Positions 581 through 24,500 of a stretch of DNA of 64,000 nucleotides are shown here, in pieces; positions within the stretch are counted from its first letter, which is position 1, and each line of letters begins with the position of its first letter. The notes beneath the pieces are model-generated. The model was not told the origin of the DNA. It did not search any database and was given only the letters and a program-made list of their open reading frames with translations. A program made the position numbers and the translations under genes. The stretch comes from Paludibacteraceae bacterium. GTDB lineage: Bacteria > Bacteroidota > Bacteroidia > Bacteroidales > Paludibacteraceae. The stretch spans positions 1,045-65,044 of the forward strand of contig JAZQOG010000036.1 of assembly GCA_045627765.1 (NCBI GenBank), given 5' to 3'.

Positions 581-875
581 CAACTTTTTTCTGATATTTG
601 CAAATAATTCTGTATTTTTCATAAAATATTTGCATATATGCAAAATATTTCGTACCTTCGAGGGCACCGACCTCGCTGCGCTCGCCCACCTCGAATGTAC
701 ATGCCTCGTCTTTATTAATATGAGCAAGTCTTTGGGCTCAACGGCTAACGCCTTCTAATTTCTTTTGTTCTATATTTTCGTGAGCGAGCTCCCAAAATAT
801 ATCTCAAAAGTACTATTATTTGATTAAAAATCAAATTTTGAGCCCAAAATATTTGCTCATACCAAATTTTTGTTG

Positions 876-13683: not shown

Positions 13684-13715
13684 CTACTCCTCTACTCCTT
13701 TACTCCTCTACCCCC
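13684..13715 (-). repeat. 8-bp-period repeat CTACTCCT x4 (AGGAGTAG on the transcribed strand) in the pta-ackA 5' UTR
   Basis: ctactcct ctactcct ttactcct ctaccccc, lying between the -7 box (13729-13736) and ATG 13655. Confidence 0.85.
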
Positions 13716-15422: not shown

Positions 15423-15474
15423 CCTAGATTTCCTAGTAGGCGTCAGCCGTCTCTATATTTCCTAGATTGTCTAG
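15423..15474. repeat. CCTAGATTT-type short repeats flanking an AGGCGTCAGCCGTCTC core
   Basis: cctagatttcctag + taggcgtcagccgtctc + tatatttcctagattgtctag. The word CTAGATTGTCTAG recurs inside the CDS at 56244-56297. Confidence 0.8.
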
Positions 15475-17126: not shown

Positions 17127-18530
17127 ATGACCTCAATAAACGACGATATTGCCCAAGAAATTCCTCGCAGACGCGATATGCGTGAGCCTCTCACGTTCAC
17201 TATCGACCCTGCGGATGCTAAGGACTTTGATGATGCCCTCTCCTTTGAATCGTTAGGAGACGGACTCTACCAAGTCGGGGTGCATATTGCGGATGTTACG
17301 CACTATGTCCTGCCCGATACGGATATTGATGACGAGGCGTACCAACGAGGAACGAGCATATACGAAGTCAATCGGGTCACACCGATGTTGCCCGAAGAAC
17401 TTTGCAACGATTTATGTTCCTTGCGACCGAATGAGGATAAGCTGACCATGTCCGTCATCTTCACTATGACCGCTGATGCCAAGGTCGTTAAGCATAAGAT
17501 CTGCCGTACGGTCATCCGTTCCGATTTCCGCCTCACTTACGAGCAAGCTCAATCCATCCTTGACGGCAAAGCCGATCTTTCAGCCGAAGGCGGTCTTTCA
17601 GCGAAGCGGTCTTTCAGCGATAGCGGTCTTTCAGGCGAAGCCGGTCTTCAACAGGCTCTTCGCGAGTTGAACCTGATGGCTATTGCCCTTCGTCAGCGTC
17701 GTATAGCGGCAGGGGCTCTGTCGATAGATAAGGAGGAACCGCGTTTTGAATTGGACGCGAAGGGTCTGCCGACGGCTATTTATTTTGAGGCTCCTACACC
17801 GGCTCACCACCTGATTGAGGAGTTTATGTTACTGACCAATCGTACGATAGCGTCGCAAGTGGGGACGTTACCTTTCGTTTATCGTGTGCATGACTTGCCT
17901 GACACAGAGAAGCTGCGTCATGTCGAGCAGTTTAAGCGGAAGATGAAGAATAGGGTGCGTTCCGAAGTGATAGACTTACTCACGATTCGTGCGATGGCGA
18001 AGGCCGAATACTCGACTCATAATATCGGACATTTTGGCTTGCGTTTTTCCCATTATACGCATTTCACGTCGCCTATTCGTCGCTATCCGGATATGATGGT
18101 TCATCGGCTGGTGGATAAGTACATCCTTCGAGGCAAGCCGTCCAAAGACCCGAAAACGGAGAAAGAGATCTTAGAGCAGGCTTGTAAGCACTGTTCTGAG
18201 ATGGAACTTTTGGCGCAGGAGGCAGAAAGGGCTTCTGTCAAACTCTACCAAACGTTGTGGATGAGTAACCACATGGGAGAGGTGTTTGATGGTACGATCT
18301 CCAGTGTGACGGAGTTTGGGCTTTTTGTTGCGCTCAATGAGTCGCGTTGTGAAGGATTAGTGCATATTTACGATGTGATTCCGGGGGAGTATATGCTTTA
18401 TGAGGAGAAGAACTACCGTCTTGTAGGGGAGACGACAGGTAAGACCTTCACCATTGGTGACCCTATGCGGGTGCAGGTGGTGAAAGTGGATATTGATCGT
18501 GTACAGATAGATTTTATGCCAATAATATGA
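17127..18530 (+). CDS. rnr: RNase R/II-family exoribonuclease, RNB + S1 domains only (no N-terminal cold-shock/OB region)
   Basis: 467 aa. It starts at the RNB boundary ([26 protein letters not shown]), has [17 protein letters not shown], and has a C-terminal S1-like segment [20 protein letters not shown]. Confidence 0.8.
17571..17652 (+). repeat. 15-17-bp-period tandem repeat inside rnr, in frame
   Basis: gccgatctttcagccgaag gcggtctttcagcgaa gcggtctttcagcgata gcggtctttcaggcgaa gccggtcttcaac, encoding [27 protein letters not shown]. It contains TCTTTCAGGCGAAGCCGGTC (17627-17646). Confidence 0.85.
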
Positions 18531-19764: not shown

Positions 19765-19863
19765 CGCTTTTTTTTGATATAACCAAATGTTTTATGAATT
19801 TTTGTCTAAAAAAAGTGTTTTTTGGGGCATATAAATCAAAACGAGCCCCGTCAATACAAAAAA

Positions 19864-19894
19864 CTACACAAAAGGGTCTGTCCCCTTTGTGTAG
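19864..19894 (-). terminator. rho-independent terminator
   Basis: CTACACAAAAGGG-tctgt-CCCCTTTGTGTAG, with a T6 run on the minus strand (plus-strand aaaaaa 19857-19863). Confidence 0.7.
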
Positions 19895-19902
19895 TTTTAT
19901 TA

Positions 19903-19948
19903 TCTTTCAGGCGTTAGCCGATCCCTACTCCTCTACTCCTCTACTCCT
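19903..19948 (-). repeat. core motif TCTTTCAGGCGTTAGCCGATCC followed by CTACTCCT x3
   Basis: Same layout as 21440-21513 downstream of the 1745-aa gene. Confidence 0.85.
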
Positions 19949-20007
19949 AGCACATTATATATCCGGCCGGCATTGATGAGGTAGATCTGGTCGTTGATAA
20001 GGAGTTT
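19933..20007 (-). pseudogene. 24-codon remnant of a surface-protein C-terminal tail
   Basis: KLLINDQIYLINAGRIYNVLGVEE* matches KLLRNGNIYLINGGRVYNATGVQLR* at the end of the 1745-aa protein (15 of 22 aligned positions identical). It abuts the stop codon of the ATPase gene. Confidence 0.55.
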
Positions 20008-21323: not shown

Positions 21324-21401
21324 CGAAAAAAAAATGATATATGCAAATAAATTAGAAAGAAAAGCGAAACTTTTTCAATTTTGACCCCAAGCATACAAAA
21401 A

Positions 21402-21430
21402 ATTAGCCCCATCATTACGATGAGGCTAAT
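21402..21430 (-). terminator. rho-independent terminator of the 1745-aa gene
   Basis: ATTAGCCCCATC-attac-GATGAGGCTAAT, with a T-run on the minus strand. Confidence 0.75.
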
Positions 21431-21439
21431 TTTTTTTAA

Positions 21440-21513
21440 TCTTTCAGGCGGCAGCCGGTCCGACAGCTGCAAGCGATCCGACAGCGTAAGCGGTCCGACA
21501 GCACAGCGGTCTG
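21440..21513 (-). repeat. core motif TCTTTCAGGCGGCAGCCGGTCC followed by about 16-bp-period CCGACAGC repeats up to the stop codon
   Basis: ggtccgacagctgcaagc gatccgacagcgtaagc ggtccgacagcacagc ggtctg, then cta (stop). Confidence 0.85.
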
Positions 21514-24500
21514 CTATCGGAGTTGTACTCCGGTAGCGTTATACACGCGCCCACCATTGATGAGGTAGATGTTACCGTTACGCAGGAGCTTCAGGGTCTT
21601 CCCTTCAGCCTCTCCGCCATTCAGCCTATCCGCCTGAATAGAAGTCGGCACTTTCGCCTCTACTTCGAGTAGGAGTTGGAAGCGGTTGTTGTACGTACCC
21701 TTATTCAGTTCTACGGTGTAGTTGCTCACGTTGAGGTCTGTGATGGAGCCATCCTCCATATCAAAGAGTTGAGCTGTTCCGCTGAACTCTTTCGGCATGG
21801 AGAAGGTGTAAGTACCATTCTTCGGAGCGCTCACACCGAGTGTTACGATTTGGTTTTGGAACGCAGTCTTGTTATAAGCCACATCGTATGCTCCGGCATA
21901 GGAGTATATATTGGGTTTGCCACTATTGGTCATCTTCATCATATCCTCGTTGAGGACGAAGTCTTCATTTGCTGCGTCAGCGAGGTTGATATAAGTATGG
22001 TCTTCCGCGCCATTGCCATTGAAGAAGAGCTCTACCATATAGTTCTTCTCGTCTGCATAATTATATTTCGGAGCAGAAGCCAATTCATTGATGATAGACG
22101 CTTTCGGCCATGTAACTAGTTCTTCTCGACCCCATTGTATGAAGTATGAATAAGAAGCCTTAAGTGTGAATTCTGCGTCATTAGTGGTTGCTTGTGGCGT
22201 ATAAGTGTTACTAGATGGATTATATATATAATAACTATCAAATGGCAAGCCTTTCGGATTTACAAGATTCTCGAATGTTGGTATACCAAATACGTTCCAG
22301 TTAGAGTCGGTATTCTTGTGATTCTTCTTCGGTTCCCCAAACTCACGATCAATGGTGCAAGTGTGTTCGGGGATCAATGATTTAGCTACACCATTGCTGA
22401 TAACATCAAAGTTATGAATCATTGATGGGAAACGGAAACTTACAGAGGCCTTACCATTAGACCATACTTCATCACTTTCTTGATCGAAGAAATCCGGATC
22501 GAGGTTAAGCGAGTATCCTACATTAGCTTCCATAATATCATCTTCATCCATTTGCTCCCAGAAGGTTGAGGTCTCAGCAAACCAACCAATTTGAGCACGC
22601 TTAGCACCATTATACTTTTGAATAACCCACTTCGTTCCGTAGCCATCTACGCCGAAGATATCTCCTACGCGTACATTGAACGGGAAACTAATCCAATAAA
22701 TATTGCGGTCGTATATATAAGTAGCCTCTTGCGTGTGACCATCGGTCATTATGCTCTTATTGAGTTGCAATTCTGCATACAAGGTCTTTACATGGAAGAT
22801 ACCACTTTCGTCATTGGCGAAACGAATAGAACGAAGGTCTTCTTGATGTTCTCGAGTGATGATAGCATCCGAATGGAGGTCTATTCTACCATTAATCTCT
22901 TCATCTCCGGGTATCCAACCGGCAACAAGGCGGTCGGTCTTGAAGTCATATACCATCTGCATATGGTAGGCATTATTATCTGTCGATGTGTTATCGCCAA
23001 TTAAGTAGTCATAACTCGTTACTGTACCATCCGCATTACCTGCGCCATAGAAGAACTGGTAATAGTTCTTATATTTAGCGCGCAATGCGATTTGTGCACC
23101 CGGTTGTGCATACACATCAATAGGATATACGAAATCTTGAGAATCCTCGAATTTAAGATCGGTTACTTCTTGCGTTTGTTCCTCATCCGAATAGATTTTT
23201 TTACTGGAGGATTGATTGTTAATCACTCGTAAAAATTGATCTTCAATCGTTCCGCAGAGATAAGCACGAGCCAGTTCACCTGTCTTATGCATAAACATAA
23301 AGCGGACAGAGGCTTTTTGACCCAATAATTTTCCTTCGGTACAAATAACATCATTAGTATAGGTTCCAAGCAAGTTGGAGTTATAGTCATTGGCTACTGC
23401 AAAATGAACATTGATATTTTCGTTATCACACCATTTGCACAGGTAATAATTAAACGCATTATTACGAGCTCCTTCTGTATAACGCATCTTTGCCAACGGA
23501 TTGGTCTTATAATCATCCCAACTATTTAGAGCATCCGTACGAACATAGTAGTCTCCTGTATAGGCAGCAGGAGTACCCATGGTAATGTCATCACCGGATT
23601 TGGTAAATGTAATGGTATAGATGCCGCCTTCGCTAATTGAAGAAACCGTAACATCTTGCAGTTTTTGCCATCCCTTACCAGGTTCTTGTTTCTGTATTTC
23701 GTATTTTGTTGCTTCGGCATTTGAATAGAACGACAATATTTCGGATTGCGCTCCATCTTCAGGCATTAAAATCTCATTGGAATAATATTGTTTGTCCGCA
23801 GTAACAACCAAACGCACATAAGCCGTGAGGTCAGGGGCATTTTTATTGAACCAAACCTTACCGTTTTTCACAAATAGATACCAATTGTGTTGACCCAAAT
23901 CAGAGTGTCCTGACGATTCTTGGTTGTTGGTATAAAAACCACTTAATCCGGTTTGTGTTTCTACGAGTGCTATTCCTGATTCATAAGACTCATGGCCTTG
24001 CCCTGTTGCATAGTATCCATTTTCCGCAGTACCACTCATTGATTTGTGCTTGATGGCATCATAAATCCAAAACGCATCATAGTCCTGACCAAATGTCCAT
24101 GGACCAAAATAATACACTCCTTTTTCCATTGTCGGTTGAAGATGGACATCTTTAGCCCCATCACAACCTATAGCAGAATGGTCTTGCTGTGTTGCCTTAG
24201 TATTTAAAGTTGCCAAATTATCCGTCCCCCAGAAATGTGATCCTACGATATAATACACCGGCTCTTTTACTTCAAACACATCCGAAGTGCAGGTTGAGTT
24301 GAAGAATCCGGTAGTAGCATCATTGATAGTAAGCGTAATGGTGTAATTACCCGTTGATTCCACATTGAAAGAGACTTTTTTACCATCAGGAGAGAATGTT
24401 GTGGTCACAGGGACTCCATCTTGTTTTAATTGCCAATTATATACTTTGGTACCATCACCACCAGTGGTCGTCGGTTCTGCCGTAATCGTTTCCCCGATTT

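Follow-up and report, generated by a model that had tools for sequence, protein, structure and literature searches.

Short tandem arrays of mini-hairpin units dispersed through genes and intergenic DNA in a Paludibacteraceae lineage

The gene for an RNB-domain exoribonuclease of the RNase II/R family (rnr) in a Paludibacteraceae bacterium carries a short in-frame tandem repeat, and strings closely resembling the last unit of that repeat recur downstream of other genes nearby. What the repeat is made of, whether its scattered relatives form one family, and how such a sequence could spread through coding and non-coding DNA are the questions that this locus raises. The gene lies in a 64,000-nt stretch (hereafter the window; C36:1045-65044) of a 2.05-Mb metagenome-assembled genome (MAG; 80 contigs, 45% GC, 97% complete, here G000), in which genes were called from open reading frames (ORFs). 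We find that the repeat belongs to a lineage-specific dispersed DNA satellite of short tandem arrays, whose units join a constant linker to a variable hairpin.

The initial annotation had read the rnr repeat and its look-alikes as one element family built around a core AGGCG..AGCCG, and much of that reading is borne out. The cited strings are all in place in the window sequence, with TCTTTCAGGCGAAGCCGGTC closing the rnr repeat at 17627-17646, TCTTTCAGGCGGCAGCCGGTCC lying downstream of a 1745-aa gene at 21440-21461, TCTTTCAGGCGTTAGCCGATCC downstream of the tail remnant at 19903-19924, and the core recurring as AGGCGTCAGCCGTCTC at 15438-15453; the reverse complement AGGCGTTAGCCGT proposed at 741-753 is also present, but it continues with TG and the final nTC is missing. 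The motif is well above chance expectation, AGGCG-N2-3-AGCCGNTC matching twice in the window against 0.04 expected, and across the genome the AGGCG motif with an N1-3 spacer has 30 matches; the extended form YAG-GCG-N1-2-AGCCG-N0-1-TC has 33, and none in a reversed-genome control. Nearly every genomic match falls within a tandem array, as the listed flanks show, and one dispersed family, present in both coding and non-coding DNA, takes in the rnr repeat as well as the 3'-flank sites at 19903 and 21440. What did not hold is the identity of the core: the constant part is the linker GGTC-TTTCAG, and AGGCG..AGCCG is one of 69 hairpin variants, the AGGCG-N-AGCCGGTC motif being the unit variant with the hairpin GGC-GNA-GCC.

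Each unit consists of TC-NNN-CAG, a hairpin running from the G of CAG to a C, and then GG, after which TC opens the next unit. The 10-nt linker, mostly (GG)TC-TTTCAG, is constant (the genome has 129 copies of GGTCTTTCAG), with minor variants at NNN (CTT, TTA, TTG, TGC, ATT, CTA and CGA), while the hairpin part is variable, its 69 different sequences being palindromes of 7-15 nt with stems of 2-6 bp. Unit lengths are 16 nt (128 units), 17 nt (59), 18 nt (48) or longer, within an overall range of 16-24 nt. When in-array units were defined by their flanks only, and a perfect stem with a loop of at most 5 nt was sought, 269 of 307 contained such a hairpin, compared with a mean of 27 and a maximum of 45 in 500 shuffles; for inserts of at least 9 nt, stems of at least 3 bp were present in 85 of 120, against a shuffle mean of 3.4. 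Seventeen distinct stems of at least 3 bp occur (GCC, GGC, GCCC, GGGC, GTCC, GCAC, GGAGC and GCAGGC among them), so that pairing is preserved as the sequence varies.

The pair that closes the loop is C:G in 260 of the 269 hairpin units, and the loop itself is GNA (171) or GNNA (58) in 229 of them, with pyrimidine triplets in a further 22. GCGCAGC (71), GCGAAGC (50) and GCGATAGC (26) are the commonest hairpins, and GCGTCAGC, GCGTAGC, GCGGAGC and others also occur. The dominant forms match, letter for letter, the mini-hairpin DNA motif GCGNAGC/GCGNNAGC, in which a C:G pair closes a GNA or GNNA loop (PMC13037366), and the array hairpins obey this published rule for very stable mini-hairpins in single-stranded DNA. 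According to a 2026 review, GCGNAGC hairpins melt at 70-76 °C, a property that depends on a sheared G·A pair, and the known natural mini-hairpins are those of the priming origins of phages G4, St-1 and α3, the plasmid ssiA signal (CCGAAGG) and the phage N4 promoter (PMC13037366). A comparable stability of the array units would be argued from these published measurements.

An array search across the genome gave 94 credible arrays, usually of two to six units, which together hold about 305 units and 5.8 kb of DNA. Coding DNA is not avoided, since 73 of the arrays (78%) lie inside a stop-free frame of at least 600 nt and random 60-nt windows do so at a similar rate (84%; p=0.12). Hosts confirmed by Pfam include the NAD-dependent DNA ligase LigA, where the array sits between the OB fold and the zinc finger, the DNA polymerase III alpha subunit DnaE (PHP domain), MnmE (G domain), CinA, DsbD, a V-ATPase I subunit, an MBOAT acyltransferase and an RlmI-like methyltransferase. 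MutS1 (C48:2154-4943) has a six-unit array near its C-terminus (C48:4669-4770). The in-gene arrays that have been kept are stop-free and have a net frame effect that is a multiple of three, and the segments that they encode are loops of about 15-30 aa, rich in Ser, Gly, Ala, Gln and Arg, in housekeeping proteins that include the RNB RNase. As a separate observation, the six-unit array makes the MutS1 of this genome, at 930 aa, the longest in the genus, and the mutS2 gene in the window has heptamer elements.

Within genes the unit strand is the sense strand in 56 arrays and the antisense strand in 17. The antisense linker, CTGAAAGACC, holds a TGA in one frame, and the 21 non-coding arrays are open in 78% of forward versus 19% of reverse frames, which predicts a ratio of 4.1:1, and the observed 56:17 fits this (p=0.46). 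The ratio is therefore that of a stop-codon filter, with insertion showing no visible orientation preference and ribosomes having to read through, and by this reasoning from sequence the arrays appear to be translated.

The rnr array itself (Table 1) has four units whose lengths (18+16+17+18) add up to 69 nt, a multiple of three, and Tandem Repeats Finder reports the repeat at 17576-17648 with a period of 16-18 and a score of about 100. Its translation agrees with the one given in the initial annotation. The 18-nt GGCGNAGCC variant is frame-neutral and stands at the end of arrays in 17 of 20 cases (p=0.03), which is probably why the initial annotation singled out a "last unit". An AlphaFold model of the RNase, with a mean predicted local distance difference test score (pLDDT) of 60.6, has the insert as a low-confidence coil between helices 138-145 and 171-194, which weakly suggests a disordered loop between the two. 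The protein combines RNB and S1 domains, the N-terminal cold-shock domains being absent, and its gene is divergent from smpB; a protein search found relatives exclusively in MAGs of uncultured Paludibacteraceae and other Bacteroidales, sampled from horse faeces and ruminant guts. Throughout the genus the RNB RNase is short (about 442 aa), without N-terminal cold-shock/OB domains, and always head to head with smpB.

Comparison with these relatives shows that the array position is a site of turnover. Most rnr orthologues are 442 aa long with a short loop at this point, and the segment that had been taken for an insert is indeed absent from distant orthologues. The two closest species (86-87% amino acid identity) have two and three units, with a CGATAG unit in common, and unit numbers among relatives range from two to five; a second clade (P0009-P0012) has arrays at the same site, P0015 and P0016 have a heptamer cassette there, P0004, P0034, P0036 and P0087 have other repeats, and P0006-8, P0017 and P0019 are short. 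Between two loci whose flanks are 94-96% identical (L045 and L046), five hairpin units stand in one, and in the other a heptamer cassette replaces the native EGKVES..K residues. Copy number is also polymorphic in nature, at four versus one units, because contigs in two unrelated metagenomes, with 98-99% flank identity to the window (8 mismatches in about 640 nt), skip exactly 17576-17626; the skipped segment is 51 nt, or three units, in frame and with 8 nt of junction ambiguity, and the 18-nt unit alone is left. Contigs from Logan break at the arrays. In this same RNB loop, P0034, P0036 and P0087 carry inserts of 60-110 aa made of other repeats (GSGQWAV.., FQQSGRTAERSDS..), and the loop at G050:C85:6220-6940 is a mix of several hairpin families, GGAGGTGCGGTCTCCAGGCCGCACC included.

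A search for GGTCYTTCAG-N5-14-GGTC across 61 genomes of the genus found 140 matches in G000, 73 in G043, 33 in G050, 17 in G059 and 11 in G003, with none in about half of the genomes and 0-2 in the controls. In 300 other Bacteroidales genomes the same search gave background only, apart from G290 and a few more in which an unrelated palindromic repeat was picked up, and the family is therefore specific to the genus, with patchy, lineage-specific expansions. That unrelated repeat, GGTCTTTCAGACTCTGGAAGGTC, occurs in up to 14 copies per genome in G290, G166, G131 and G261, which belong to other Bacteroidales families; it includes the word GGTCTTTCAG without the mini-hairpin architecture.

We compared 21 array sites with their counterparts in G043, the closest genome (about 90% protein identity and the source of L001). 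All 21 hold a repeat cassette there, which is a hairpin array in 11, a heptamer mini-element with the core AACTAGACGGCT in seven and another repeat in three. Two of the 11 hairpin arrays are nearly identical to those of G000, the mnmE array being so over four units; in the rest, the units or their number are different. G066, a distant genome with no units, has short and plain loops at these sites, and in G050, from a separate clade with units, they are mostly plain, with units at the ligA and rnr slots only. On this sequence comparison the arrays are net insertions. The linker between the LigA OB fold and zinc finger is hypervariable in the genus, 30 species having almost 30 different small repeats or hairpins (L060-L089). 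LigA ORFs range from 669 to 822 aa, and the array in the copy studied here is at G000:C3:47357-47390. Our reading is that insertions create inherited "slots" in tolerant loops, whose content then turns over among several repeat families. This has a bearing on the earlier idea of a single element family that seeds or carries variable repeats. Seeding is unsupported, as a unit adjoins just 5 of 104 CTACTCCT arrays, 1 of 27 (TGTCCTT)n arrays and none of 30 heptamer (AGTTTAR) arrays, but hairpin arrays and the heptamer mini-element do use the same slots in close relatives. Nor do the counts support AGCCGTCT as a core common to the units and the mutS2 mini-element. It is enriched within the window (7 versus 1.5 expected), but across the genome it occurs 84 times, against 80 in the reversed-genome control, and heptamer-element cores account for only about 11 copies, the hairpin units instead reading AGCCGGTC.

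How such arrays are founded and rewritten is constrained by the relationships among them. The longest exact run common to two loci is 50 nt, on which block transposition of whole arrays was rejected. Simple local duplication does not fit either, since units that lie side by side resemble each other no more than units paired at random, adjacent identical hairpins making up 5.3% of pairs against 6.7% expected. Loss of mismatch repair was likewise rejected as a cause, MutS1 being intact in 58 of the 61 genomes, G000 included. The explanation that we favour, and to which we would give slightly better than even chances, is a self-propagating hairpin-array satellite that spreads by slippage and microhomology-based template switching and does without a dedicated transposase. 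The hairpin would exert its effect in DNA, on one of the strands, as the DNA is replicated or repaired. Arrays would grow and shrink by misalignment between the 10-nt linkers, a step that the 51-nt in-frame deletion allele at rnr displays directly, and the hairpins may promote this slippage. With other arrays as the source, new arrays would be founded, and old ones overwritten, through microhomology-primed template switching or ectopic conversion, the targets being existing repeat cassettes or sequences that resemble a unit by chance (RTC...TTNCAR). Such resemblances do occur: RTC lies to the left of nearly every array, the right flank is weakly similar to the linker head (TTtCAg), the four units of G000 at C42:12565 correspond to TCTTGTGGTGAGAATGGTC alone in G043, and the rnr edge sequence ATCCTTGACGGCGAAGCCGGTC is unit-like and encodes the conserved ILDGEA. 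The corresponding site in G043/L001 reads GGCGAAGCCGGTC, and the native rnr sequence itself resembles a unit, since the IL[DE]G[KE] residues are kept in orthologues that are free of repeats. A dedicated transposase would apparently play no part.

Several points weigh against this explanation. Nearest-neighbour folding, whether of either DNA strand or of RNA, gave no excess stability (z +0.5 to +1.2) when run without special mini-hairpin loop terms, and because the computed energies show no excess, the structural claim draws its support from covariation and from agreement with the experimental rule. Array orientation is not biased relative to local GC skew (41 versus 53), which gives no sign of a mechanism tied strictly to the leading or the lagging strand. 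None of the comparisons made caught a de novo insertion whose donor could be identified. The model does not account for the replacement of a heptamer cassette by a hairpin array, since the two share no homology. The MAG is 97% complete, and a mobilising gene could be missing from it or be of a new type. Translation of the arrays, finally, is deduced from the stop-codon filter.

The most serious rival, unlikely as we judge it to be, is that the arrays are a non-autonomous mobile element, which a dedicated enzyme recognising hairpin and linker would move, inserting it 3' of TC or duplicating TC. Such an enzyme might resemble the REP-associated tyrosine transposases (RAYT) of repetitive extragenic palindromes (REP) or the HUH enzymes of IS200/IS605, or be another nuclease or integrase. 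Y1 HUH enzymes recognise single-strand hairpins with a nearby conserved motif, which is the type of target that a unit presents, and an enzyme of this kind would fit the presence of one 10-nt linker at 94 loci, the RTC that precedes nearly every array (88 of the 94 have C at -1 and 76 have T at -2), the GGTC at every array end and the patchiness of the expansions. However, the richest genome, G000, has no match to the Y1/RAYT transposase family PF01797, and elsewhere in the genus the presence of such matches and the unit count do not go together; the hairpins vary while the linker stays constant, the reverse of what REPs do; no two arrays are copies of one another; and instead of clean insertions one sees cassettes in place of native residues or of other cassettes. 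The presence of reverse transcriptases (RTs) is also uncorrelated with unit counts. An RT was rejected as the writer, G059 having units but no RT, several zero-unit genomes having RTs, and G000 having a single weak one. That sole RT-like ORF of G000 is at C27:1397-2131 (470 aa; PF00078, E=6e-12).

Local replication slippage at each site, with the common unit reflecting a mutational or compositional bias of the lineage, seems to us improbable. The genome is certainly rich in other short tandem repeats, such as the 104 arrays of CTACTCCT, and both unit-number polymorphism and the unit-like native sequence at array edges are what slippage in situ would lead one to expect. But a 10-nt linker joined to a rule-obeying hairpin cannot arise independently 94 times, and the lack of likeness between adjacent units, the mixing of 16-, 17- and 18-nt units within arrays and the frameshifted intermediates that stepwise growth by 16 or 17 nt would imply in genes all speak against it.

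We think it very improbable that the arrays are maintained for a selected function, either in RNA (structure, pausing or processing) or in protein, as a flexible or phosphorylatable linker module. The arrays occur in both transcriptional orientations, in all three frames and in non-coding DNA, and stop codons alone explain the orientation ratio. Retention of the same sites in G000 and G043, including the nearly identical mnmE array, could be taken as a sign of selection, but unrelated cassettes occupy the same slots in sister species. The encoded peptides are Ser/Gly-rich, as a flexible linker would be. Arrays were also found in contigs from RNA-sequencing runs, yet their RNA folding is unexceptional, they have no Rfam match beyond a Thr_leader hit below its gathering score, and the C:G-closed GNA triloop is a stability rule of DNA, not of RNA (PMC13037366).

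An artefact of assembly or sequencing, for which one might cite the known capacity of mini-hairpins to disturb sequencing (PMC13037366) and the breaking of Logan contigs at arrays, has a negligible chance of being right and is already refuted by independent MAGs and assemblies from different studies that hold arrays at orthologous in-frame positions, by the hundreds of contigs in several metagenomes that hold units, and by reading frames that stay open across the arrays.

There is also a wider proposal, which we put forward tentatively and would not expect to prove right as it stands: that the arrays, together with the heptamer and other cassettes, are written and overwritten by an active, genus-specific process at the DNA level, be it enzyme-free template switching at forks stalled by mini-hairpins or a hairpin-recognising enzyme, and would amount to a new kind of mobile DNA that continually rewrites surface loops of essential proteins, among them LigA, DnaE, MutS, MnmE and RNase II/R.

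The family can be classed with dispersed palindromic repeats that invade genes. Its nearest functional analogue is the Rickettsia palindromic element (RPE), with which it shares dispersal of a palindromic family through intergenic DNA and in frame through conserved genes, a tolerated peptide and the lack of a transposase of its own. RPEs are single elements of about 100-150 bp with one long stem-loop, found in Rickettsiales, whereas here, in a Bacteroidota genus, arrays are built of 16-24-nt units, each with its own variable 2-6-bp hairpin and a constant linker; on this comparison, made by description only, the architecture differs and the family is therefore not a member of the RPEs. To our knowledge, the RPEs are also the only comparable case of in-frame insertion outside this lineage, which makes it of wider interest that a free-living gut bacterium tolerates about 70 insertions, each in frame and 15-30 residues long, in its housekeeping proteins. 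REPs and bacterial interspersed mosaic elements (BIMEs) are likewise short hairpin repeats in hundreds of copies, often clustered and thought to act as single-stranded DNA. They are, however, extragenic, with conserved stems, usually in alternating orientation and accompanied by a RAYT gene, in contrast to arrays that are 78% within ORFs, vary in the stem, keep the linker fixed, run in direct orientation and have no PF01797 match; set against the REP plan of a conserved palindrome with a conserved flanking tetranucleotide, it is the linker that is conserved and the palindrome that has 69 variants. Miniature inverted-repeat transposable elements, which have terminal inverted repeats, a target-site duplication and a related autonomous IS, differ in that the units here are direct repeats, with only RTC...GGTC bracketing the arrays and no parent element found. 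CRISPR repeats are at least about 23 nt long and have unique, non-palindromic spacers, unlike a 10-nt constant part alternating with a 7-15-nt variable palindrome at 94 loci, mostly in genes.

Prokaryotic long simple sequence repeats of the 5-11-nt class, and the heptamer mini-repeat, resemble the arrays in their abundance across a lineage, their head-to-tail units, their occurrence at gene ends and in frame, and their variation in copy number, but the units described here are longer, composite and heterogeneous within an array, with one linker across 94 loci. The mobile GC-cluster and double-hairpin elements of fungal mitochondria are also very short hairpins that spread within a genome and sometimes sit inside coding sequence; they are organellar, differ in sequence, lack constant-linker arrays and are in some cases bypassed in translation, as opposed to the read-through for which the stop-codon filter argues here. 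The mini-hairpin DNA motif of Hirao and colleagues shares the C:G-closed hairpins, extended forms included, but its known occurrences are single hairpins at phage and plasmid priming sites and the N4 promoter, not dispersed in-gene tandem arrays (PMC13037366). A limited literature search found no description of such mini-hairpin repeat arrays. What is unusual about this family is the use of a minimal DNA hairpin motif as a building block and the exchange of cassettes at fixed slots. It would be a natural, genome-scale use of GCGNAGC mini-hairpins, previously known from single phage and plasmid priming sites and from oligonucleotide chemistry, and the swapped-cassette slots offer a tractable system for studying how short dispersed repeats spread without a transposase. 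More practically, short-read assemblies are broken by the arrays, which also make proteins in MAG catalogues look more divergent than they are; annotators should expect such arrays.

Table 1. Hairpin units, arrays and associated features in the window
Feature	Position	Strand	Basis or remark
Host gene, RNB-domain exoribonuclease (RNase II/R family), 467 aa	17127..18530	+	ORF and translation; Pfam PF00773 + PF00575 (RNB plus S1); source names 'RNB domain-containing ribonuclease'
Degenerate or proto-unit TC-CTTGAC-GGCAAAGCC-GA-TC, encodes conserved ILDGKA	17557..17577	+	sequence and relatives
In-frame rnr array, 4 units + terminal TC, 69 nt = 23 codons	17576..17646	+	sequence, Tandem Repeats Finder
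rnr unit 1, TCTTTCAG-CCGAAGGC-GG, 18 nt	17576-17593	+	
rnr unit 2, TCTTTCAG-CGAAGC-GG, 16 nt	17594-17609	+	
rnr unit 3, TCTTTCAG-CGATAGC-GG, 17 nt	17610-17626	+	
rnr unit 4, TCTTTCAG-GCGAAGCC-GG, 18 nt	17627-17644	+	
Solo unit TCTTTCAG-GCGTTAGCC-GATCC	19903..19924	+	between stop codon and terminator of minus-strand 403-aa gene, antisense to that gene
(CTACTCCT)3 microsatellite adjoining solo unit	19925..19948	+	separate larger family, 104 arrays
Intrinsic terminator-like hairpin adjoining solo unit	19860..19898	-	
Non-coding 4-unit array, linkers TTTCAG and CGACAG	21440..21511	+	hairpins GGC-GGCA-GCC, GCT-GCA-AGC, GC-GTAA-GC, GC-ACA-GC
Mini-hairpin GGC-GTCA-GCC then GTCTC, no TTTCAG/GGTC linker	15438..15453	+	flanked by TTTCCTAGA-type repeats; membership uncertain
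Mini-hairpin GGC-GTTA-GCC, no linker	741..753	-	membership uncertain

Elsewhere in the window, the solo unit lies in a 3' end (19864-20007) whose paralogue at C22:29346-29400 has three units, rather than one, at the same place. The minus-strand 1745-aa gene has its stop codon at 21514-21516, 2 nt beyond the end of the four-unit non-coding array, which is antisense to the gene. At 15438 and 741, both of which had been counted with the family, the GGCG-NNA-GCC mini-hairpin is present but the linker is absent, making membership uncertain; each site may be the decayed remnant of a solo unit or belong to a different type of cassette. Searched against Rfam, the arrays matched no family, the sole overlap being the Thr_leader hit at 21397-21537 on the minus strand. 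This hit scores 32 bits (E=0.004; gathering score 55), overlaps both the non-coding array and the terminator, and is most likely due to chance.

The 8-mer CTACTCCT forms 104 arrays of at least three units in the 2-Mb genome, with examples in the window at 13684, 19925, 29565 and 44602. The five that adjoin a hairpin unit compare with about 0.6 estimated by chance and all read GGTC-(A/C)-CCTACTCCT, the other 95% being independent. Solo units also occur directly after (TGTCCTT)n or (TCCTTAC)n microsatellites (G000:C62:15433, C70, C51, C14:5544 and C20), whose repeat unit resembles the linker head GTCCTT. At five intergenic loci (C3:4097-4236, C3:7321-7447, C4:3191-3311, C52:380-524 and C75:1840-1989) two arrays stand back to back, inverted, with a conserved junction. 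One block of each pair is made of long-stem units with TTT loops and the other of CTACAG/CGACAG units ending in a conserved ..GTGAACGATCA, an end that lies about 40 nt upstream of the ATG of the next gene. The compound element may be a terminator/promoter spacer module.

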